A DNA stretch of 64,000 bases from Mobula hypostoma. Taxonomy: Eukaryota. Both the position numbers and the translations under genes were made by a program. Below the pieces are notes generated by a model. That model was not told where the DNA came from, did not search any database, and was given only the letters and a program-made list of their open reading frames with translations. This document shows, piece by piece, positions 4,831-62,900 of this stretch; the stretch's first letter is position 1; each line of letters begins with the position of its first letter. The stretch is taken from NCBI RefSeq assembly GCF_963921235.1, contig NC_086108.1, forward strand, positions 69,318,001 through 69,382,000, read 5' to 3'.

Positions 4831-6290
4831 TTTATTTATTGAGATACAGGGCGAAGTAGGCCCTTTGCCCTTCCAGTCACGTCGCCCCAAGTTAATGTTT
4901 GCCTAATCACGGGACAATTTACAATCACCAATTAACCTACTAACTGATAGGTGTTTGGAATGTGGGAGAAAACGGGAGCACTTGAAGGAAACCCACGCGG
5001 TCATGGGGAGAATGTACAAACTCCATACGGGCAGCGGCTGGAACTGAATGGGGATCGCCTGTACTGTAAAGCATTGAATTGAATGGGGATCGCCTGTACT
5101 GTAAAGCATTGAACTGAATGGAGATCGCCTGTACCGTAAAGCGTTGAACTGAATGGGGATTGCCTGTACTGTAAAGCATTGAACTGAATGGGGATCCCTG
5201 TACTGTACAGCGTTGAACTGAATGGGGATCGCCTGTACCGTACAGCGTTGAACTGAATGGGGATCGCCTGTACTGTAAAGCGTTGAATTGAATGGGGATC
5301 GCCTGTACTGTAGAGCGTTGAACTAAATGGGGATCGCCTGTACTGTAAAGCGTTGAACTGAATGGGGATCGCCTGTACCGTAGAGCGTTGAACTGAATGG
5401 GGATCGCCTGTACTGTACAGCGTTGAACTGAATGGGGATCGCCTGTACCGTAGAGCGTTGAACTGAATGGGGATCGCCTGTACTGTAAAGCATTGAACTG
5501 AATGGGGAGCGCCTGTACCGTACAGCATTGAACTGAATGGGGATCGCCTGTACTGTACAGCGTTGAACTGAATGGGGATCGCCTGTACCGTAGAGTGTTG
5601 AACTGAATGGGGATCGCCTGTACTGTAAAGCATTGAATTGAATGGGGATCGCCTGTACCGTAGAGCATTGAACTGAATGGGGATCGCCTGTACTGTACAG
5701 CGTTGAACTGAATGGGGATCGCCTGTACCGTAGAGTGTTGAACTGAATGGGGATCGCCTGTACTGTAAAGCATTGAATTGAATGGGGATCGCCTGTACCG
5801 TAGAGCGTTGAACTGAATGGGGATCGCCCGTACTGTACAGCGTTGAACTGAATGGGGATCGCCTGTACTGTACAGCGTTGAACTGAATGGGGATCGCCTG
5901 TACGTAAAGCGTTGAACTGAATGGGGATCGCCTGTACGTAAAGCGTTGAACTGAATGGGGATCCCCGTACTGTACAGCTTTGAACTGAATGGGGATCGCC
6001 TGTATCGTAGAGCGTTGAACTGAATGGGGATCGCCCGTACCGTAAAGCGTTGAACTGAATGGGGATCGCCCGTACTGTACAGCGTTGAACTGAATGGGGA
6101 TCGCCTGTACTGTACAGCGTTGAACTGAATGGGGATCGCCTGTACGTAAAGCGTTGAACTGAATGGGGATCCCCGTACTGTACAGCTTTGAACTGAATGG
6201 GGATCGCCTGTAGCGTAAAGCGTTGAACTGAATGGGGATCGCCTGTACCGTACAGCTTTGTGCTAACCACTATACTACTGTGCCGCCCCC
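4831..6290 (-). mobile_element. tRNA-derived SINE (V-SINE/HE1-like) with internal tandem expansion
   Basis: Minus strand starts ggggcggcacagtagtatagtggttagc (A-box-like). Central domain tgggtttcc...tgctccc...tcccacattccaaa. Ends ctgtatctcaataaataaa at 4831. Sits inside a Penelope pLTR remnant (4801-4830 and 6291-6470). Confidence 0.8.
5041..6259. repeat. 35-bp minisatellite, ~35 copies (gaactgaatggggatcgcctgtactgtaaagcgtt)
   Basis: Directly visible head-to-tail array with point variants and a few 33-bp units. It explains the repetitive ORFs at 4940-6345. Confidence 0.97.
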
Positions 6291-8299
6291 AGTTCTTGAA
6301 CAACACGGGCAAAATGCTGGAGGAACTTATCAATTCAGGTGGCATTTATGGAGGGAAATTAAAAGTTAAGATTCCTAGCTGACTTTTCTCAGGACTGGCC
6401 TGATGAAGGTTCACAGCCCAAAACATCAACTGTTTATTCCCCTCCTTAGATGTTGCCTGACTCAACCTGTTTCAGTATGCTATACTTAGGAGGTGACAAT
6501 AGCAAATTCATATCCTTCTTATTTAAAAGTGCATACAACAGAGATTTTCCAGCATTATGGGGTTTCTAATATGGCAGTAATTGATTTTCACTCATATTAC
6601 CTTGCAGACTGCACCTCAGATTGGAGAGATGCCAAAATTAGATGGGGTTTTAGTTTTTAAATGAGCTATCTTCACCTTGCACTAGTTAGTTGTACCCTAT
6701 ATCTTCTGATTGCTATGTCTCATCAATGGCTAACTGCTTGAGGATAATGGCTACCCCCTAAACATACAGCTTCTGAAATAACAGCTGAATTTTCTAATTT
6801 CCCATTATTATGCTTATGTTCCTGTCCCACCGCTTTTCTTTAAAATGCCTTGCTAATGATCAGTATTCATGTTCCTTATCAACTGATCTGACTGAACCTG
6901 TCTCCATATAAACTTTTGTCTTACTCCTCACTCCTCCTCCCAGCTCTGCTTGGAAAACTATGAACCCTCCACCCGATCCCCTAAGGGTTGCTGACCGAAG
7001 ACATCGATTAGTTTTTTCTCCCCCACAGATGCTGTTTGACAGACTGAGTTCTTCCAGCATTTCTGTTTTTGTTTTAGATTCCAGCACCTTCAGTGTTACT
7101 TGCTTTTCATAGATTGGACTCACATGGGTTCCCACAGTTACCACTTCTGATTTAGTTGAAATAAAGGAGAATTTGTTTAATCTGAAAATGAGACCAACCA
7201 GATGTAGGTGGTGGTGAGAGGGCATAGGCTGGCCTCCACACAAGGGAGTAGTGAAGAGCTCACAGTCAATTCCATTGCAGGATGGGAGGTTAAGGGGGGG
7301 GGGGTTTAAAAAAATTGGCACTGATAAATTGTAAACAGTCAAAATGGATGGATGCAGCAGTGGTTTTACTGATGAAGGTGGGAAGAGACACTACTAGAAG
7401 AGAAAAAAATCATATGAAAGAAGAAAGAAATACGCAGTGTGAGATTAGAACTAGTGGAAACAATGTGTCAACCTAGATAATGCAGTTTTAGATCTTGGAA
7501 AAGAGCCAGAAGCAAGCTCTGCAGGGTCAGAGGCTGTCAGCACTGGAGGGGAGATCTTTAGTGAAGATTACCTCAGATTGTCTGGGAGACATTGCCCAAA
7601 TGTTCAGTAGTCAGATCATGGTCCAGGCAGAGGTAGGAGGAGGTTTTACAGAGCTGACATTCACCAGGCATGATACAGAAATCGGCTGCCAGGGTTTAGT
7701 GATAATTTTAAGGTTAGTCCTAGATTTGATGGGCGGGGGAAGCTAGTGTGAACAACAGTGTGGGAAAAATTGAGACAATCCATACTGCATCGCCTGGTAA
7801 TGCATGGGAAAGAGTCATGTGAAGAGGTATGCAATGTTGATGAAATATTGTCATAACATCAATCCGTTATGGTAGTTGTAATTGGTGGAGGTTCAGCTCT
7901 CTCTTATTTTGTTTGTTGTGTGGTTGAAGTGAGCTTTGAACCAACCAACCTCCAACGGAGTTTGTGTCTAAAGAAGTCTCAAAAATATCTCCAGGTGTTT
8001 TCCTCTTCCTTGAACTTGCCTTTCATCACTCAACAATTTCCGCTATTCAGATACTGATACTGCTGCTCTGACCCTCACCTAACAAAACCCAGCCAGCATC
8101 GCTTATTTTGCATTCTCGTCTTACCCTGGGGCTTGGTCATTCTGACGCCCATGGCTTGCCTCTCGACTTGTTTTACTGTTTACTGCTCTCCTCAGCCCCG
8201 ACTCTGCAGCGTCATAAAAAAGTCTAATCCTTTCCAGCAACACACATCAAAGTTGCTGGTGAACGCAGCAGGCCAAGCAGCATCTATAGGAAGAGGCGC

Positions 8300-8335
8300 A
8301 GTCGACGTTTCAGGCCGAGACCCTTCGTCAGGACT
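8300..8335 (-). ncRNA. Minimal type I hammerhead ribozyme motif (inverted twin of 9113-9148)
   Basis: Exact reverse complement of the 9113-9148 motif. Confidence 0.72.
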
Positions 8336-9112
8336 AACTGAAGGAAGAGTGAGTAAGGGATTTGAAAGCTGGAGGGGGAGGGGGAGATGCAAAATGATAG
8401 GAGAAGACAGGAGGGGGAGGGATAGAGCCGAGAGCTGGACGGGTGATAGGCAAAAGGGGATACGAGAGGATCATGGGACAGGAGGTACGGGAAGAAAGAT
8501 GGGGGGGGGTGACCCAGAGGATGGGCAAGAGGTATATTCAGAGGGACAGAGGGAGAAAAAGGAGAGTGAGAGAAAGAATGTGTGCATAAAAATGAGTAAC
8601 AGATGGGGTACGAGGGGGAGGTGGGGCCTAGCGGAAGTTAGAGAAGTCAATGTTCATGCCATCAGGTTGGAGGCTACCCAGACGGAATATAAGGTGTTGT
8701 TCCTCCAACCTGAGTGTGGCTTCATCTTTACAGTAGAGGAGGCCGTGGATAGACATGTCAGAATGGGAATTAGCCTCCAACCTGATGGCATGAACATTGA
8801 CTTCTCTAACTTCCGCTAGGCCCCACCTCCCCCTCGTACCCCATCTGTTACTCATTTTTATGCACACATTCTTTCTCTCACTCTCCTTTTTCTCCCTCTG
8901 TCCCTCTGAATATACCTCTTGCCCATCCTCTGGGTCACCCCCCCCTTGTCTTTCTTCCCGGACCTCCTGTCCCATGATCCTCTCGTATCCCCTTTTGCCT
9001 ATCACCTGTCCAGCTCTTGGCTCTATCCCTCCCCCTCCTGTCTCCTCCTATCATTTTGCATCTCCCCCTCCCCCTCCAGCTTTCAAATCCCTTACTCACT
9101 CTTCCTTCAGTT

Positions 9113-9148
9113 AGTCCTGACGAAGGGTCTCGGCCTGAAACGTCGACT
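9113..9148 (+). ncRNA. Minimal type I hammerhead ribozyme motif in Penelope pLTR
   Basis: AGUC-CUGACGA-AGG(GUCUCGG)CCU-GAAA-C-GUC^GACU: stem I AGUC/GACU, conserved core, short stem II, palindromic ACGU in place of a stem III hairpin. Predicted cleavage after 9144. Confidence 0.72.
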
Positions 9149-9569
9149 GCGCCTCTTCCTATAGATGCTGCTTGGCCTGCTGCGTTTACCAGCAACTTTT
9201 ATGTGTGTTGCTTGAATTTCCAGCATCTGCAGAATTCCTGTTGTTTGATTTCTAATCCTTTCCATCCGAGATTAAAAGTTATCGATAAGAAACATTGTTT
9301 ATCTATTCATAGATGTTGCCTGATCCACTGATTATTTGCAAGATTTTAGCTGGCATCTCTGATATCCGCAAGTTTTCACTTTTTCCACAAAGAGAACTTC
9401 TTAAGTGCAGCCACTGTCGACAATGTGCAAATGAAACGGTAGGAGGATGAAGTGAGGTCGGCCCAGCACCGGAAGGTGTGGGAAGTGCGCTCAAAGACGA
9501 GACCACTGTGCTTTGGGTGAAGACCCAGATGTTGATGCATCCATTTCCACCCAGGTTGCGACTTCATTG

Positions 9570-10065
9570 CGAACGGTCGCAACAATCTCTGCTGATGTCA
9601 GCCTGCGTGCCTCGGGGGTGACGTAATACGCGCAAGTCGTCACGCCGACGGGCCCGTGTGCAGGCGCAGGGAAGGAGAAAACGCTAAAATAAAGGGGGTC
9701 GCCGGCTGTTGGGCGTAAGATTGACTCAGGGGTTTTGTGTCAGCTTACAACAGCGGTTGTTGCTTAATAAACGAGCCTATTGATGACAACCTGGTAGTCT
9801 CGGGTTCTCGTCTTTCCCCCGCCCTCGAGTTTCAGGGCAGCTTGTTATTTGTTTTCTATTGCAGCTGCACGGAGCCGAGCGGCCTTGTCTCCGGCAGAAG
9901 GAAACGCTCTGCATTTGTGGGGTGAAACATCGCGGCGACGTTGCCCAGAAAGAAGAGCTTGTTCGTTTCATTTGCTCTCCGTCCGGTTTTCCTTCCTCCT
10001 CGACACCCCCTCCCCTTCCCGGCCAAGCAGTAATGGTAAATGCAGTGTAATAATTAAGGAGAAAT
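9570..10065 (+). promoter_or_regulatory. CpG-rich promoter / 5' UTR of RNF11
   Basis: Local CpG enrichment in an otherwise CpG-depleted window. CRE-like TGACGTAA at 9619-9626 and CGTCA at 9638-9642. Lies directly upstream of exon 1. TSS cannot be determined from sequence. Confidence 0.75.
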
Positions 10066-10185
10066 ATGGGAAATTGTTTGAAATCTCCGACGTCTGATGA
10101 CATTTCTTTGCTTCACGAGTCTTCTGACCGGGCGAGTTACGGAGATGGCACCGAAATAGACCAAGAGCCGCCGCCGCCATATCAG
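10066..10185 (+). CDS. RNF11: RNF11 coding exon 1 (MGNCLKSPTSDDISLLHESSDRASYGDGTEIDQEPPPPYQ)
   Basis: ATG at 10066 in good Kozak context (aatATGg). Translation matches the RNF11 N-terminus, with the Gly2/Cys4 acylation motif and PPPPY (PY motif). Phase-0 donor CAG|GTTTGT at 10185/10186. Confidence 0.97.
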
Positions 10186-11559
10186 GTTTGTCTTTGTCTT
10201 TTTGGGGCAAGTTTCTTTGTCGTATGCCCTTTGTGCATCTGTATTCTCTGTCGCTGCCAGCGTTTAATTAAACACATCGTTTGATTTATTTTTGTTTAAT
10301 GACTTTCAACGCTATCTTTATTTTGCATTATTAATTAACCAAAAGGGGTTTGAAAAGATTTATAAATATGAACCTATCACTCGAAAATTTAAGTTGACAT
10401 TACATGTTTTAGAGTTCAAGTGCTGTTCAAGAATGAAGGTAACTTTGTATTATGATGCATTTTAAATATCAAACGTAATGTTATTTTTAGCAAATTAGAC
10501 AAAATTAAAAACTTTAACTGGGCCTATATTGTTCTCCATTTTATTATGGAACTTGGTGTAGTAATTAAATGCGCACCGCTCCGTAATATTCGTTTTACTA
10601 TTGGTGGATATCTTTTGGCGCAGTTAACAGTCGGGGGAAAACAGGGCAGCATTGTGAAGTTAGTGGTCTGTTGTGTCTGCAGTAGATAAGAGATCGTTGT
10701 GTTCCTCCTATTTCATTTGTATTGGCTCTGACTGAACTTTAATGCAGATCCAAAATCAAAGATGATCTTTATTCGCCTATTTACCTGTTTGAAAAAAAAT
10801 GTTATGTTATGGAGTGGTGGAGTGACAAATCTTGGTTCGGTGTTTGGACAGAAATAGTGAAGAAAAATGCTCATCACATAGAACTCTTATCAATTTGCAA
10901 AGCCCGAAGCATGCAAGAATGAGTTTCCTTCCTTATGCTTTTCTCTCCAAAACCTTTCCTAAAGGATGTAACAGCCATTATTCTTTGTGGAATCAAGCAG
11001 AGCTGCTCTTAGCATTCCTATAGTGATAGGACTATACTGTAGTGACATTTTCAATAGTAATCTTAATGAAGTAAACATCTAATGCCTTTTATAACCAAAT
11101 GAAAGAAAAGTCTTGGTTTCTTAACTTTAAAACAAGTGAAACATTTTTTTTGCAGAGCTGTAGGTCATCATTTTAAATCCTAGGCAATCAAGTACAGTAA
11201 GTAGTTAGTGACGTTTTGTTGAATGCCAGTTTGGATAGACTGAGAAAGAAAATAGTACTTTCAGTGAGCATTGTCCTTGAGGGAGGGAAACTTTGTTAAA
11301 AATTTCTTGTTTGTTTGCAGATATCTTACAAATGATTTTTATTTCACTGCATCCACAAATTGTCTGGGGGAGGGGAGCTATTTGTTTCAATTGATCTTGA
11401 TACAATTCAACATCCATTCCCTTAAATGGAGTTGATTTTGGGTATGTGCAAGTTGTTGCATTTTGGGAAGGCAGGTTAGGGTAGGACTTCCACTGTTAAC
11501 AGTAGGGACTTGAGAACTGTTGTAGAACAGAGTAACAGTGTTCCCCAGTGTCGGTAGTA

Positions 11560-18470: not shown

Positions 18471-19779
18471 AACATAGAATAAGGACATTGGTACATTGAA
18501 TTTCTCATCCTTAACACTGGTCACTTTTTTAATGTCTTTTCAATAGTTCATCAACTTAACCAATTTTTCTGCCGTTCACCTGCACTGGAGTAATTTGAAG
18601 TAACTAGTTGAGTTGCCAACTGATCCTTGGATATGGGAGGAAACGGGAACATCCAGAGAGCAGCCCAAACAGTCACTGAGGATTTGCTCAATGTGCACTG
18701 TTTTTGAAGGTTAGAATTTAACCAGGTTCACTGGAGATGTAAAACAGCAGAACTAATTGCTGTGCTGCCCTTTATAGAAAAGCAATCAACAGTGTACTGA
18801 GGACCTTGGGTCATCTCAGGAACACAGGAAGAATGGCACTGTGTTACATACTATATACACTCACTGGAGAATGATCCACTCTCTGCAGTAGGACTCTCTG
18901 CTTAGTTCCCTTGTCTCCATCTCTTGTTGGAAGTTTGGACTTTGATCATGCAGGCACATTAGTTGTCAAAACATTGTAAAATCTATTTATGCTTAGAGAA
19001 AATGCTAAAGTTCTAGTTGTATTTGAGATTGACTGTTCACTTTTCATATCATGTACCCTGGATCTATCCCAGTTTTTTTTTTAACTGGGATATTCCAAGA
19101 AGATAGTCATTTATCATGCTGGTTGACTATCTCTGCTGTCATACCTGTTTTAAATCAATGCACTGTTTCTTTGTGATATTAGGTAAGGTGAATAGCACCA
19201 GTAAATGATTTGACTGTAGAAATGAGTGCATGTTATTTAAACTTACAGAATACACAGAAATGGGCTCTTCAGCCCATCGTGCCAATATCATTTTTGTCTT
19301 TATTCTAATTGCATTTGCCCATTTAGGATATGGGCTTAATGCTGTCCATTCAAGTGCTTGTCTAAACCTCATGATTATTCCCAATTCCACCGCCACCTCT
19401 GGCAGTAAGTTCCATATACTCACTACTCTATATATTTAAAAACTTGCCCCTTGGATCTCCTGCAAAACTCCTTCCTCTCAGTTTAAAACCCATGCCCTCT
19501 TGTTATTGATACACAGACCGTGGGAAAAAGATTCTGACTTGTCTACGCCACTTGCTCTTTTATAGCCCAGCCTATACAATTCTTTGCATAACAAAAGCCC
19601 TTTAGTCTTCTAGATAATGTCCTCTCATGTATGCTCTCTAGTACAGCCACATCTTCCTATAGTGTAGCAACCAGGACCACATGCAGTAGTCCAAGTGTGG
19701 TTTAACCAGTGCATTTTTAGTTGCAACATTAATCGCACTTTCAATTAAAATGCCCTGACCTATGAAGCCTTATGCTATC

Positions 19780-19978
19780 AAAACACACAAAATGCTGGAG
19801 GAACTCAGCAGGCCAGGCAGCATCTGTGGGGGGAAAAGTACAGTCAACGTTTAGGGAAGGGTCTCGGCCCAAAACGTTGACTGTGCTTTTTTCTGTAGAT
19901 CCTATCTACTGAGTTTGTCTTGTATTTTGTGTGTGTGTTGCTTGGATTTCCAGCATCTTCAGATTTTCCCTTGTTTGT
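19780..19978. mobile_element. Miniature palindromic Penelope-pLTR insertion
   Basis: Truncated minus-strand pLTR joined to a plus-strand pLTR at the hammerhead region. 17-bp TSD tgaagccttatgctatc at 19763-19779 and 19979-19995. Confidence 0.85.
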
Positions 19979-21409
19979 TGAAGCCTTATGCTATCTTCAC
20001 CTAATCTGCACATCTAATCTTTTCCAGTGGACAATGTACTTGAACCCTTGGGTTCCTCCATGCCTCATCTTTCCTTAGAGCCGTAACTTTTACAATTGGA
20101 CTTCCCATAAGCATTATTACCTTGCATTTGTCAGGATTAAATTCCTCTGCTGCTTCATTTGATTTTCTGTATAATTCTGTATTCTGCTTTCACCTTGAAC
20201 AACCCTCCTTGATTTCTGCAACACTATGAACATTTTTTTTTCGAAAGAGTTGCTAATAATTCTAAATCAAAAATGTATCACAAACAGAGTCACAGCAAGC
20301 ATCCCTATGATATACCAATGATCACAGATTTCTAACCAAAGTAGTTTTTTGTTGTTGTGAACTTTGGCTGAAAATAAAGGCTTTTGAACTGTTTCTGTCA
20401 CTCTGATTGCATTCAAATTTCCATTCACACTCCCTAAATCAATATCATTTAAAATCCTTGTCTAATAAGTGTCAATTGCAAACTTGAAAATTTCAGTTGA
20501 TCTAGTTTGGAAAACTTTTCAGGAGGTTATTTTGTTACTAGTTTCAGTAAATACATGCTTTCAGACATCTGAAGGATCTATTTCTAAATTTTGTGGTTAT
20601 CCTACCAGTTTTAAACCTTTACACCACAGAAAATCTGGACATGGAATAGAGAAAGTGCATTGACGATTTTCCTTGCAAATCAGTTGTAAATGGCCAATTT
20701 TAGTTCACTATTTTAGTTGCCTGTTATTGATATGGCAGTTTGATTGTTGCCAAATAAAAAGTAGTAAGGAGGTGACTGAAGGTTTTTTTTTAAACAAGTA
20801 AGAAATTAGATCTTGCAAATTAACAGCTGCAAAGTGCTGATTGGAAATAATTTAAGAATGTTTAGTAGAATTAACAGAAATTGAACCGACTATTAAATAA
20901 AAAGTAGGGTTTGTAGTTGGGGATGGAAAAAATGTAAGGCAAAATTGGTAATGGAGGAAATGCATAGCAAAGAGAAATGGCCTTCCACCTGTGAAAACAA
21001 TACTGGATATGCTCATGCCAGGTTAATATTTTCATCAGAATGAGGGGAAAATTGGAAAGCAATTTTTTCAGTTGGTAAGAAAACAGAGGGTGGAGAAAAT
21101 ATAACTCTTAAGAAGGTTGACTGATTGACCCAGATGGCCTGTTTACTTGATGAAAGAGATGAAAAACCTGCTTACGGTAAATTTGTCCAAGAAATATAAA
21201 AGAAAATGAATGAGAACAGAGGGGAGAATGAGAAGGCAACACTGGAATGTATTGGAAATGCCAAGCCCTATTGGAACACTGAGCTGAATCCTCTGTGCTT
21301 GAGCCCATTACATTGTATCGCAGTTCCAACTTTTAACTACTTTCCCTTTCTGATGGGGTAGTCTGTAAGTCTGATGCACTTTAATCATTAGATCAGGTGA
21401 TAATAGACC

Positions 21410-33959: not shown

Positions 33960-34129
33960 GAACAGGTTCCAGTTCCTGTTTATCATCCTACTCCAAGTCA
34001 GACTCGGCTGGCCACTCAACTTACTGAAGAAGAACAGATCAGAATAGCGCAAAGAATAGGCCTCATTCAGCACCTGCCCAAAGGGGTCTATGACCCAGGA
34101 AGAGATGGATCAGAAAAGAAAATTAGAGA
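33960..34129 (+). CDS. RNF11: RNF11 coding exon 2 (EQVPVPVYHPTPSQTRLATQLTEEEQIRIAQRIGLIQHLPKGVYDPGRDGSEKKIR-E)
   Basis: Pyrimidine tract plus AG at 33958-33959, 170-nt exon, donor GA|GTAAGT at 34129/34130. Manual translation is recognisable RNF11. Not in the ORF track because it has no start codon. Confidence 0.97.
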
Positions 34130-35814
34130 GTAAGTTCAAATTATTTTCATAGTTTTATCTCTGGAAAAATTACCACTCAAGCATGCTGGAGATAAATGGG
34201 TTTTCTTCATCCATTGAGTTATTACTGCAATTACTCCTATACCAAAAGGCATAGATGGTTTTGTTTCTTTAATTCTCAGACAAAAATCAGGGCTATTGCA
34301 GGATCTCCATTTTTCATCTCTATTTTAGTGTACTATTTTTTAAAAAATACTGTTGAACCTGGTTTTGCCTGACACAACTACTACAAAACTTCAGAGCAGC
34401 CTGTTGAATGATGCTGTTCGAATTTTGGATCATCACTACCTCACCAGGTTGTATCTTTCTATATACCTATTCATTTTTTATATGTCTAGTTAATTCCCAT
34501 GTTTCTGATTAAATGCTGGTTTGCATATGTACTACTACTCACCTGTTTTCTGTTTGGGAGTTCTAACCTCCAAATTGTAATTCCTGACATAGTGGGCCCT
34601 GCTGTTTAGGTCAGCATTAGCATGGCCCACTAAGTCTTTTAAACTAATGAAGGTGCTTCCAGTTGTGTTTTTGACATGTATTTGCATCCAGCAGCAGTGA
34701 GGAACGAGCAAGTCAGGATAGTAGATGACTTCTTATGAATGGGATGCTAATTACACGGTCTTTCTGCTCTGTTCTGGATGGTGCCAAGTGTTACTGGAGC
34801 CATATTTCTTTAGAAAAGTGGAGTGTTCTCTTATGCACCTGCTTGTTTTTGTTACCATTTAATTTGTTGGTCCATCTTAGTATCTTTTCTTTGGTGATCC
34901 CCAGCATGTTGTTAATGGACAACTGAGCAACGGCAGTGTAACACACAAAATGCTGGAGGAACTGATCTGTTCCTATGAAGGGTCTCAGCACAAACATCAA
35001 CTGTTTATTCTTCTCCATTGATGTTGCTTGACCTGCTGTATTCCTCTAGTATCTTGTGTGTTAAGTCTGGATTTCCAGCATCAGCATCTGTTGTGTTCAT
35101 GCCATTGGATATTAAGGGTTGTAGTGTTAAACATCTTGTTGCAGGTGATCATTGCTGGCCACTGAATTGTTGAGCTGTGTGCAGGCCTGGGCTGCTTTGT
35201 TATTTAAGGAACTGCAGATGGAATTGGAACACTATTGTAAACTCTGCCATCGACCTTGTGATGGAGGAATGGGTATAAATGAGGCATTTGATTGTGAATG
35301 GACCCAGTCCGCTACACTGAGGAACCCCTGCAACAATATCCTGGTGCTGATATCACTGATCTTTTTTTAAAATACTGTGGTCATCATCTTTTGTGCATGA
35401 GGTGACTCTGCTTGGTTAGGTTTTCCCCTTGAAGACTGTTGGTGGTGCAAGTTTACCTTAATACCCTATCAGGTGGTACTAATTCTGGGACTTAAGCACT
35501 CTTTGTCCATAATTGACCAATGTTGTAGCCTTGGCTGGCACACAATGGCAATTTTGGAAGACAATTGGTAGCAAGTGCTGCTTGTTGCCACTGACAACAA
35601 AGACTTCCTAAGTTCTGCTTTTGATTGAGAATAGAAATACAGGAATGTGATAGGTTAGATTTTGGGGTCATAATGTACTGCAGTACATTTCCATGCTGCC
35701 TGTAGGTGTACAAGACACCATTGTATAGATGCATGGCAAGTTCTGGATCAGAGGCTATCTGTGAGTTGTTTTCTTGGGTGTGTGTTGGCTCTTGGCATCA
35801 TAATGGAGAAAGCT

Positions 35815-36552: not shown

Positions 36553-36624
36553 TGTGACAAAGCTTTTGGATGTATTTGCAGAGTATCCTTTTGGTCATGA
36601 TAAACCTTTTTTTTTGCTTTTCAG

Positions 36625-36796
36625 GTGTGTTATTTGTATGATGGACTTTGTTTATGGTGATCCAATTAGGTTTCTTCCATGCATGCATATTTATCACCTG
36701 GACTGTATAGATGACTGGCTGATGCGATCGTTCACGTGCCCATCTTGTATGGAACCAGTGGATGCAGCATTGCTTTCTTCCTATGAAACCAACTGA
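36625..36796 (+). CDS. RNF11: RNF11 coding exon 3, RING-H2 domain (CVICMMDFVYGDPIRFLPCMHIYHLDCIDDWLMRSFTCPSCMEPVDAALLSSYETN*)
   Basis: T-rich acceptor ...ttttcag at 36624. Phase-2 join gives GA|G=Glu. C3H2C3 RING, TGA ends at 36796. The three exons sum to 462 nt = 153 aa plus stop. Confidence 0.97.
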
Positions 36797-44447: not shown

Positions 44448-45132
44448 ACACCACACACACAATGCTGGTGGAACACAGCAGGCCAGACAGCATCTATAGG
44501 AAGAAACACAGTCGCCGTTTCAGACCGAGACCCTTCATCAGGACTAACTGAAAGAAGAGATAGTAAGAGATTTGAAAGTGAAATGATAGGAGAAGACAGG
44601 AGGGGGAGGGATAGAGCTAAGAGCTGGAAAGTTGATTGGTAAAAGGGATACAAGTCTGGAGAAGGGAGAGGATCAGGGGATGGGAGGCCTAGGGAGAAAG
44701 AAAGGGGGACGGTAGCACCAGAGGAAGATGCAGAACAGGCAAGGAGTTATTGTGAGAGGGACAGAGAGAAAAAAGGAAAAAATAATAAATAAATAAGGGT
44801 TGAGGTAAGAAGGAGAGGAAGGGCATTAACAGAAGTTAGAGAAGTCAATGTTCATGCCATCAGGTTGGAGGCTACCCAGATAGAATATAAGGTGTTCCTC
44901 CAAACTGAGTGTGGCTTCATCTTGACAGTAGAGAAGGCCGTGGATAGACATATCAGAATGGGAATGGGATGTGGAATTAAAATATGTGGCCACTGGGAGA
45001 TCTTGCTTTCTCTGGCAGACAGAGCGTAGGTGTTCAGCGAAACGGTCTCCCAGTCTGTGTCATTGTCTCACCAATATATAGTAGGCCGCACTGGGAGCAC
45101 CGGACACAGTATATCATTCCAGCTGACTCTCG
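44448..45132 (-). mobile_element. Penelope-like element 3' portion with GIY-YIG endonuclease motif
   Basis: Minus strand 45129-45061 translates ESAGMIYCVRCSQCGLLYIGETM (GIY...YIG). It continues to the same C-terminus and pLTR as 8237-8770. Hammerhead-like motif at 44510-44545. Confidence 0.88.
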
Positions 45133-59300: not shown

Positions 59301-59716
59301 AGAGCCTATGAATGTTTGCTTTTATTAGTTGAGGCACTGAGTTCAGAAGTCAAGAGGTTATGTTGCAACTTTATAAAACTCTGGTTAAGCCACATCTGGA
59401 ATTTTGTGTAGAGGTCTGGTCGCCCCACATTCTGCTATCATAGGAGACTGGGTAAGCTTGGGTTGTTTACTGTGGAGCACTGGAGACTGAGGGGAGATCT
59501 GATAGAGGTTCATAAGATTATGAGAGGCATAGATAGAGTAGACAGGGAGTACCTGTTTCCCAGGGTTGAAATGTCTGGCATCAAAGGGCATGCATTGAAT
59601 GTGAGAAGGGGTAGGTTCAAGGGGGACGTGAGGGGTAAGGTTTTTACTTGGAAAGTCACGGACACCAGGAATGCACTGTCTGGTATGGTGGTAGAGGCAA
59701 ATACATTAGAGGCTTT

Positions 59717-59995
<279 letters not shown>

Positions 59996-62900
59996 GGGGC
60001 TTTTACATGATGTTTGAATCGGCACTTGGATGTAAGGAAGATGGAGGGATATGGATATTGTGTAGGTGGAAGGGATTAGTGTTTGGATGTTTTTGATTTG
60101 CTTTTTAGCTGTTTCAGCATACATTGGGCTGAATAGCCTGTTCCTGTGCTGTACTCTTCTATGTTCTGTGATTTTGCATCCTTCACACTCTGCCCCATCA
60201 TTGGCATCTGCGCTGGATTGTAACTCTGAATTACTTCCCTGTATTTCTCGACTTCTCTGTATTCAAACGCCAGAAACTTTCAAATTTTGCTTTGTTGAGA
60301 CTCCTTATAATATCCCCTTGCTGAGTTAATATTAAGATGTTGCTCATGGGAAACATTTCTAAACATTTAATATTTTAAAGAAGCTAAATAAATCCAGGTT
60401 ACTGTATTAGCAATTTACATGTAAACTGTAATTATGGTTAACTTAGTAAATATAAACAAGGACAAAGGTAAATTTAAATTTTTAATGTTTAACAATATGA
60501 AACAGTATTTCTTGTCCTGAATCCAGCAGAACACAATCAACTGTCAAAACTAATATTTCATTTACAAATTCTACAATTATTGATCCAATCCCATGCTGCA
60601 CTTTAAGAATTGACATTTCAGATTGTAGATTAACTTTTCCAATATTTATGTGCAATCAATGCATTGTATTATAATAAATATAATAAAGAGATACATGTTC
60701 AGTGCAGAATTTTTAAATCTGCCTCTTTTAAAAGCAAAGTGTTTGGTATCCTTCAATTTCCATTATTTCAGTTAGCAGTAAATGGATGGTTGTCTTTCTG
60801 TTGCCCTTTCAAAGATGCTGAATGCATGAACCATTTACATAAAGATACTTCTAAACAAACAAAGGCTTTGTTTGCCTTAAGTGTTGAAGAGAATAATGTG
60901 CAATATGGCTGCCAAATCAAACGGAAATCAAAAGCTCCTTGGGATTCTCAAATTTATATTTTATAGTGTAACACTTATCCTAGAGTTTCCTGAATTTGAA
61001 GCCAAGTCTCCAGCCAGGTGAAAAATCTTGCTGGAAATAGTTTTGTTCTCCTCAAGCATTTTATACTTCATATTCTTATAACAATTAAATTAAAGAAAGG
61101 TAATTTAAGTGGAGTATTGGGTTGAATGTCTTATAATGCAATGCTCTAATACTAAATTCAATCAGAGTTGGCTACCACTGCCTGGAAATGAAACTTTTGC
61201 ATTAGCTAGCAGCTAAATCAATTATAGAAGGATATTAAGTATTTTGTGGGGGGTGGGGTGAACTGATATTCTGAGAAAAATCTTGAGTATTTTCCATGTT
61301 TATCCATAAACTATTTGCCTCTTTCAAGAAATAATTATTACAGGTTGGAAAGTTTGCATTTCAAGATGGACATATGAAAGTTTTTCCATATTTCTCTGGA
61401 AGGGAGTCACTACAGTATGTTTATATCAATAGCAAGTCAGACAATGGTACTGGAAATGAGTTTGCATATAAATATTTTAAACTAGGAAATAGAGGGTTAA
61501 AGTAACATTCTGATAACCAACTTTTATTCCCAGAATGATGCAAAACAACCACAGATTGAGTTTTTTTTAAAACCTCCCATAGTTTGAAAGAAAGTAAGTC
61601 TGACTATAAAATACCTGATGAAACTGTTCAGTTTTTTCATCATTGCTATTGACCTCCTAATGCATATGGCAAGTTGTTGAATGTAGAAGCTTTTTTGAAC
61701 TTGGGCCCCACCATTTAATGGGAGTGTTGTTCCTAATGTGATTTGTCTGCTGGCGAAGGGAATAGCAAGCCTAGTCTTCCTGCAATAAATTCTTCATCTG
61801 ACATCATCGCATGTAAAACCTTCCATAAGCAACAAATTTAACAATAAAATCAAAAGTTGCCACTGTTCACACATGCGTCAATCACTTTCTTCACAATATT
61901 TTTCAAACACCTTCAACATGAACTGACACATCAGATAATTGATTTTAATAGATGCAAACCACTCACTAAAGACACCTTACTAGCTGAAACAGGATATAAG
62001 CACATTGGACACTGCAACTGATAATAAAAAGGTAATGAAAAGTGTGTTATTTGCTCTATTGAAATGCAAGCAGTTTACATCTTTATATTCTTGGGTATCT
62101 TTTGGAGGTCAATGAGTGCTATGTGGTAATGCATTTTAATAACTGAAATCTATTTGCATGTGAAATAATGTATTTACATTTTTACAAAGACACTTATTTA
62201 GAAATAACATTACCGTAAATTACTAAACCAGTAATTTACTCCCTGAACCAAAGTAAACCAGTTGTGTTTATAATTCCTGAGAACCCAGTTGAAGTTGTTC
62301 TCAATCACAAAAGAAGTTCACAAAGATTACCAGTAAATGCAAATGTACCATTCTTCAGAGCAAGGGGGAAAAAATCAATGTGGATTTCATAGGTGTTTTG
62401 CCAGGATAATTTAAGCATCTTTTATAAAGAAGGCAGTAATGATTTCTTCCCATTTTGTGTGTGTGATTTCAACTTGAGAAGAGCAGCTTGGATTCGAAAA
62501 TGTGTTCTTGACTCCATTGAGTAATTGTTGTAATCTTGCCTAAACAAATAAAAGTAATCTGCTGTAAATTCTCCAGATTATTTGAATAGTCTGAATGCAT
62601 TTAGCTAAATAACTACAATTACACGGTAGAACAAATACTGTGACGAAGAGAGACCTATATATTGCAATAACATCCTATGCTCAAGTCATAGCAATGTCTT
62701 TTGGCATGTAATATAGCTTATAATTTTAGTAATACAGAATCATTTCATTGTGAAGGTCTGCCCCTCCAAATGATACAACAAAGTGATCTGCAGATGTGAA
62801 CAATTCCATTGGCAGTCATGAAAACCTCTAATTATCTCAAAGTCTCTTCTGAAGAAAACAGTTTCTGCTCCTCAGTCTTCATTCACAACCAATTCCTTAC

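Follow-up and report, generated by a model that had tools for sequence, protein, structure and literature searches.

Penelope-like elements (PLEs) are known for an unusual insertion structure. An inverted 5'-truncated copy beside the 5' end, together with a tail of 30-40 bp that is often found at one end only, is described as the norm for these elements (PMC8557442). In another account, an inverted pLTR, a 31-bp tail and target-site duplications (TSDs) of 8-10 bp are reported, and the head-to-head form is given as the most frequent arrangement (PMC3846280). Metazoan PLEs also carry dual minimal hammerheads, located on opposite strands about 100-700 bp apart, and single minimal hammerhead monomers showed no cleavage in vitro (PMC4209133). 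Biochemical information comes from an Anolis element. Its purified protein, of the Poseidon clade, cuts and extends both target strands and was modelled as a dimer; reverse transcription begins at two start sites whose interval corresponds to the genomic tail, and the starts are described as non-homologous. Its hammerhead cleaved only with the protein present, and insertion in vitro could proceed without this cleavage (PMC11167929).

A PLE insertion of this kind was found close to the RNF11 gene in the window, by which we mean the whole 64-kb stretch of Mobula hypostoma DNA that was analysed. The insert between the two TSD copies measures 1,014 bp; the copies and the insert comprise the following features.

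8223..8236, plus strand: left TSD, 14 bp, with an exact copy at 9251-9264.
8237..8770, minus strand: main 5'-truncated copy, 534 nt, with the last 46 codons of the endonuclease region, the stop codon, the 3' UTR/pLTR and a hammerhead, without tail.
8237..8676, minus strand: left inverted-repeat arm, 440 nt, delimited by the arm alignment.
8631..8768, minus strand: 46-codon C-terminal fragment of the open reading frame (GIY-YIG endonuclease region), without a start and not a gene.
8677..8770, minus strand: spacer, 94 nt; in the older copy at 44453-44965 it runs on into the arm without a break.
8771..9250, plus strand: second 5'-truncated copy, 480 nt, shorter than the first and in inverted orientation, meeting it head-to-head at 8770/8771.
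9212..9250, plus strand: one-sided tail, 39 nt; many contigs of the family depart from the window sequence at 9239-9248.
9251..9264, plus strand: right TSD, 14 bp; the match of a relative's contig starts exactly at 9251.

We hold with good confidence that this is a dead-on-arrival PLE insertion in which two 5'-truncated end copies lie head-to-head within a 14-bp TSD, that it was likely acquired once the lineage had separated from a close relative, and that it is likely neutral. The 14-mer occurs at 8223-8236 and 9251-9264 with no third copy on either strand of the window, and a chance match has a probability of 4.5e-9 per position. The right arm (8771-9211, 441 nt), once reverse-complemented, aligns with the left arm (8237-8676) at 432 identical columns out of 441. 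The nine differing columns represent seven events, that is, a divergence of 1.6% (95% interval 0.6-3.2). All seven are confined to the outer 265 nt (post-hoc probability 0.03), and comparison by eye with other family copies placed derived states on both arms. Each arm also holds private sequence: the 94-nt spacer belongs to the element and is found in the left copy alone, at its inner end, while the 39-nt extension at 9212-9250 is an outer segment carried by the right arm only. The inner join at 8770/8771 is blunt and head-to-head, with neither palindrome nor microhomology. The perfect TSD and the near-perfect inverted arms had been noted in a preliminary description of this DNA and were recovered here; its estimate that the left end falls short by about 35 nt compares with the measured 39 nt.

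Two further observations concern the internal sequence. The inner 175 bp of the arms (8502-8676 and 8771-8945) are perfectly matched, by chance or by arm-arm conversion. Close to where its reading frame ends, the element also contains a 12-bp inverted repeat (8663-8714, -29.7 kcal/mol). In the window, 5' junctions at 8771, 15962 and about 390 are located in or beside this repeat; although these are only three, they hint that reverse transcription may stop, or a transcript begin, at this point.

The identity of the element was assessed through its coding remnant. The minus strand from 8768 to 8631 encodes a 46-aa peptide followed by a stop codon at 8630-8628; about 31 of its codons lie in the spacer and the last 15 in the arm, in keeping with the earlier remark that the spacer continues the endonuclease frame on the minus strand. 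The peptide is 96% identical to the C-terminus of P0121, a Mobula hypostoma protein of putative RT/GIY-YIG type. In a homologue search among longer proteins it matched 27 of 30 candidates, those with names being all from rays or skates, including proteins of Hypanus, Hemitrygon and Rhinoraja; the search restricted to proteins of the same length found none. Pfam returned no match for two short peptides, this one included. Seven relatives were also scanned, and a GIY-YIG match was obtained in five of them, one above the curated cut-off (P0140, 27.9 > 22.6 bits) and four below it, with no Pfam RT domain in any of the seven. The relatives carry a YIDD motif, which we take to be the RT motif. In P0121, P0122, P0126 and P0127 a Cys-x4-Cys-x2-Cys motif was found, presumably a Zn-finger-like linker between RT and endonuclease. 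Such a linker is a trait of Neptune and Nematis alike (PMC8557442).

The insert itself, being 5'-truncated, has no RT region, and its 534-nt piece (spacer plus left arm, minus strand) aligns along its length to the older copy at 44453-44965 with 75.5% identity. Judged from its sequence, the element is almost certainly an endonuclease-bearing (EN+) PLE in 5'-truncated form, and it may be of the Neptune/Nematis type given the Cys-rich linker of its relatives, a trait that both clades share. Since the named relatives of the peptide are proteins of rays and skates, some with GIY-YIG matches and a presumed RT motif, a ray-like host and an endonuclease-bearing PLE are both indicated. The Penelope assignment made earlier, with inverted pLTR, TSD and hammerheads, is right. 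A MITE or DNA transposon, which would have symmetric terminal inverted repeats and derive from a transposase element, was rejected: one end of the insert is 39 nt longer than the other, and its sequence comes from the 3' end of an RT/GIY-YIG element. As a separate observation, the 46-aa peptide also turned up as part of predicted isoforms encoded by ray genes that have nothing to do with the element (P0123, P0124, P0128 and P0136, annotated among ATP synthase c, VKORC1L1, neuromedin-U receptor and ABHD14A), which are exonised fragments or annotation artefacts.

The same family end was detected in 20 fragments of the 64-kb window, which were grouped into 14 loci (one of them weak). Head-to-head pairs account for five of the 14 loci: 6297-6461, the RNF11-proximal insertion at 8237-9250, 19780-19978, 34940-35100 and 59722-59994. 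A TSD was found for three of the five, with lengths of 14 bp, 17 bp and 11 bp (one mismatch), and the tail is one-sided wherever it could be read. The 19763-19995 insertion is older and short and belongs to a related subfamily; it shows a perfect 17-bp TSD (19763-19779 and 19979-19995), a tail on the right only and a junction within the hammerhead region. The one at 59708-60005, also short, has the 11-bp TSD with one mismatch. Its tail is on the left, and the AC run beside this tail has expanded into a long (CA)n stretch. The pairs at 6297-6461 and 34940-35100 are decayed and centred near the hammerhead, and no convincing TSD was found for either. An older and longer 5'-truncated copy of the same family is located at 44449-45130; it includes the GIY-YIG motif region and is frameshifted, and neither an inverted partner nor a TSD was found for it. 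Upstream of the insertion, a 35-bp tandem array of about 36 units occupies 4906-6345 and displays long open frames in several phases.

The insertion was compared with the canonical EN+ PLE unit, as drawn in the Fig. 2 legend of PMC8557442 and exemplified by Pen2a_Av and the scaffold 304 Pen2 derivative (PMC3846280). In agreement with that unit, it consists of a 5'-truncated copy and an inverted 5'-truncated neighbour placed head-to-head, with a tail of 30-40 nt at one end, a TSD and a pLTR hammerhead. In contrast, both copies are short here (534 and 480 nt), so that the insert is almost all palindrome. The 14-bp TSD also differs from the 8-10 bp of the rotifer EN+ examples, and the inner junction, unlike theirs, has no palindrome. 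The whole architecture, with an inverted truncated copy, a one-sided tail and opposite-strand hammerheads, is the published norm and recurs in the window. The structure noted in the preliminary description is real, but it was missed there that the one-sided tail and the opposite-strand hammerheads belong to the norm. A limited literature search found no Mobula-specific paper on these elements, and the ray family may already have been described.

Contigs from 4 of 24 listed runs were compared over the region 9190-10060, runs with a small share being excluded. DNA of organism A, which is of the same species, gave one 2435-nt contig that covers 9224-10060 with 0 differences. This contig passes the right junction by 27 letters, fewer than the 31 taken as the threshold for bridging, and it stops at the point of entry into a very high-copy repeat; the run is possibly the source of the assembly and in that case not independent. 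The depth of the flank is that of the single contig, unbroken at 9251, where a second (empty) allele would branch. As contigs can drop variants, the unbroken contig simply fails to support polymorphism. The DNA contig of organism B, a close relative, is 3581 nt long and matches 9251-10060 only, with 11 other letters and a 10-nt insertion, while its 1169 letters upstream of 9251 have no placement on the element. Assuming colinearity with the left flank, the contig would start at 7054, a position within the old repeat 6983-7107 and so a natural contig break. The start of the match at 9251 suggests that the insertion site is likely empty in organism B, as represented by one run from one individual, and that the insertion is likely lineage-specific, having taken place after the split from this relative.

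Over the adjacent 283-bp flank, organisms A and B differ at 6 of 283 positions (2.1%, interval 0.8-4.6), a value indistinguishable from the arm divergence (Fisher p 0.58). Given this resemblance, the insertion may date from about the time when both organisms separated, or the arms may originate from two slightly different templates. The earlier view of a recent insertion is retained in so far as the insert is likely absent from a close relative. The suggestion that it is possibly polymorphic was left unsupported, considering the single unbroken same-species contig at the junction and arm divergence at about the between-species level.

Concerning the birth of this structure, two-ended priming is the mechanism that we somewhat favour. 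The protein of the element would nick both target strands, 14 nt apart, and each nicked 3' end would prime reverse transcription on element RNA. One priming event at the outer start would copy the 39-nt tail, and the other, at the inner start, would omit it. Both cDNAs would stop early (480 and 534 nt) and then be joined end to end, and fill-in of the staggered nicks would produce the 14-bp TSD. Two independent primings directly account for the private sequence of each arm, 94 nt at the inner side of one and 39 nt at the outer side of the other. A related process is the twin priming of L1, in which both target strands prime cDNA and a 5' inversion is generated inside the TSD. The inversions of L1 have a poly(A) end and are made up of segments of a single RNA that do not overlap; in the ray insert, in contrast, both pieces are the same 3' end, and therefore a long inverted repeat is formed. 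The Anolis Poseidon element (PAc, PMC11167929) likewise presents two end classes separated by the tail and uses both target strands. It differs in clade, since the relatives of the ray element carry the Cys-rich RT-endonuclease linker of the Neptune/Nematis type, and in its AC-rich start site, whereas the inner end of the ray insertion is in a GU-rich run. A candidate priming microhomology at the left junction (4/5 between the TSD end and the element) was set aside, given that the copy at 19.8 kb has none and that the Anolis starts are non-homologous (PMC11167929).

A less probable origin is a fold-back, in which one cDNA would prime itself and copy its own arm, the endonuclease trimming one of the tails at integration. 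Self-priming has been proposed for head-to-head palindromes (PMC3846280), the tail has been ascribed to resolution by the endonuclease (PMC8557442), the arm divergence is compatible with purely post-insertion change, and the inner 175 nt are perfect. However, folding back would require a jump across a 94-nt loop with no homology to guide it, at an inner junction that has neither palindrome nor microhomology, and more recent experiments in vitro trace the tail to reverse transcription from two start sites (PMC11167929). It is extremely improbable that the structure is an assembly or read artefact, such as a mirrored chimeric read. Inverted PLE structures are known to trouble assemblies (PMC8557442), and the raw data covered the right junction, one of three; on the other hand, the seven arm-difference events with derived states on both arms, the private sequence of each arm and the perfect TSD argue against a mirrored read, the short-read contig holds the right junction with 0 differences, and older decayed copies nearby share the layout.

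As it had been pointed out earlier, each arm bears an identical hammerhead motif, one per strand. Both were compared with the minimal hammerheads of PMC4209133.

8299..8336, minus strand: left minimal type I hammerhead, core start at 8331, predicted cut after 8304.
9112..9149, plus strand: right minimal type I hammerhead, predicted cut after 9144.

The 38-nt motif is the same in both arms (9112-9149 on the plus strand, 8336-8299 on the minus strand). In the right copy, helix I is formed by 9112-9116 and 9145-9149 (5 bp), followed by the core at 9117-9123 and an extra A at 9124. Helix II pairs 9125-9128 with 9133-9136 (4 bp, two of them G-U), and GAAA (9137-9140) and a palindromic ACGU (9140-9143) complete the motif; beyond this palindrome helix III is absent. 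Searching Rfam gave 0 matches at the gathering score and no hammerhead among four weak matches; the MIR408 matches, below the gathering score, were rejected because they reflect the inverted repeat only. With respect to membership in the minimal hammerheads, the conserved core, the extra base after A9 and the palindromic 15.2-16.2 are present, and a G-U pair takes the place of G10.1-C11.1. This substitution is predicted to lower the activity while the resemblance to minimal hammerheads is kept. The motifs resemble those of metazoan PLEs (PMC4209133) in the type I core, the extra nucleotide between 9 and 10.1, the short helix I, the palindromic 15.2-16.2 and the opposite-strand pairing, and depart from them in the G-U instead of G-C at 10.1-11.1 and in a distance of about 790 bp, compared with about 100-700 bp.

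Folding calculations indicated that the motif alone disfavours the hammerhead fold (-7.0 vs -11.0 kcal/mol; z 0.40). In the ensemble of the full insert the pairing probability of helix I was 0, and the same bases paired with the other arm at > 0.998. The motif is of the minimal type that depends on dimerisation, and the two hammerheads cannot dimerise with each other because they are on opposite strands and a same-sense partner is needed. No promoter-ORF unit would survive in the insert, and the sense hammerhead would always be on the arm transcribed second, so that the 440-bp duplex would trap it in an inactive state. Both hammerheads are predicted to be inert passengers in through-transcripts. 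The preliminary description had expected a dsRNA hairpin to compete with ribozyme folding; according to the helix I probability of 0, the hairpin would win outright.

The insertion lies upstream of the following features of RNF11, which had been correctly named as the downstream neighbour.

10066..10185, plus strand: first coding exon of RNF11, with up to 95% match to named RNF11 proteins.
9400..10300, no strand: RNF11 CpG island (neighbour, outside the element), delimited by CpG o/e.

Exon 2 is near 33960 and exon 3 within 36584-36793, both in the window. The CpG o/e rises to 0.7-1.2 from about 9400-9500, compared with 0.25 for the window, which places the edge of the island roughly 150-300 bp from the TSD. 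Two runs were guessed to be RNA. In that of organism A the contigs over RNF11 extend from 9643 to 10060 and leave 9340-9639 uncovered; in that of organism B they extend from 9534 to 10060 and leave 9280-9519 uncovered. A scan for bacterial promoters, of no relevance to this host, gave nothing. Such contigs of presumed RNA cannot show starts, strand or absence, their RNA status is a guess and their stops differ between organisms; the gaps are evidence neither against divergent transcription nor for a shifted start. The RNF11 5' leader also contains a 10-nt indel between organisms A and B at 9777, observed in both the DNA and the RNA-guessed contigs of organism B.

Three ways in which the insert could act at this locus were considered. 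Self-cleavage of both hammerheads in locus transcripts, ending upstream read-through or divergent transcription, would draw on a core that is intact and identical in both arms. It appears highly improbable: helix III is limited to ACGU and monomers are inactive in vitro (PMC4209133), a same-sense partner is needed and each strand has one motif, the G-U at 10.1-11.1 and the alternative fold of the isolated motif (-7.0 vs -11.0 kcal/mol) add to this, and the motif is sequestered whenever the first arm is transcribed. An effect through dsRNA had also been put forward, and no positive support for an action on RNF11 was found. Upstream transcription, or divergent transcription from the island, would yield a 440-bp hairpin which, once diced or edited, would repress or modulate the promoter of RNF11 in this species. 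We regard this as very unlikely, even though the hairpin is calculated to be very stable (-979 and -958 kcal/mol), the island edge is 150-300 bp away, the insertion is likely species-specific and siRNAs matching inverted Penelope regions were described in Drosophila (PMC3681739). Against it, no positive sign was found, palindromes are so common (five of 14 loci in 64 kb) that proximity to a promoter is expected by chance and, as deduced from the coordinates, a divergent transcript must exceed 1.3 kb to pair both arms fully. The hairpin/siRNA idea is plausible in kind and, with the Drosophila precedent (PMC3681739), not new. There is correspondingly little expectation that transcription through both arms would produce siRNA/piRNA or edited dsRNA and shift the RNF11 start site or its methylation with respect to the probably insert-free relative. 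A cruciform or fragile site at the RNF11 promoter, acting at the DNA level, is hardly to be expected either. Long arms, 98% identical, do lie beside a transcribed promoter, but the 94-bp spacer argues against the cruciform that had been suggested: inverted Alus stall eukaryotic forks at a spacing of 12 bp and not of 52 bp, and longer spacers lower the risk (PMC7999016, a review).

The insertion is real, well preserved, likely lineage-specific and ordinary for the Penelope-like class. For it to acquire greater importance, small RNAs specific to the locus, or some influence on RNF11, would have to be demonstrated; if such a cis effect were true, the two rays would constitute a natural species pair for testing the PLE birth structure as a vertebrate cis-silencing signal. 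[quoted passage not shown] The locus also provides a base-precise record of PLE integration, with a 14-nt stagger, two end classes and a blunt inner join, which is useful for mechanistic work on the origin of inverted pLTRs.
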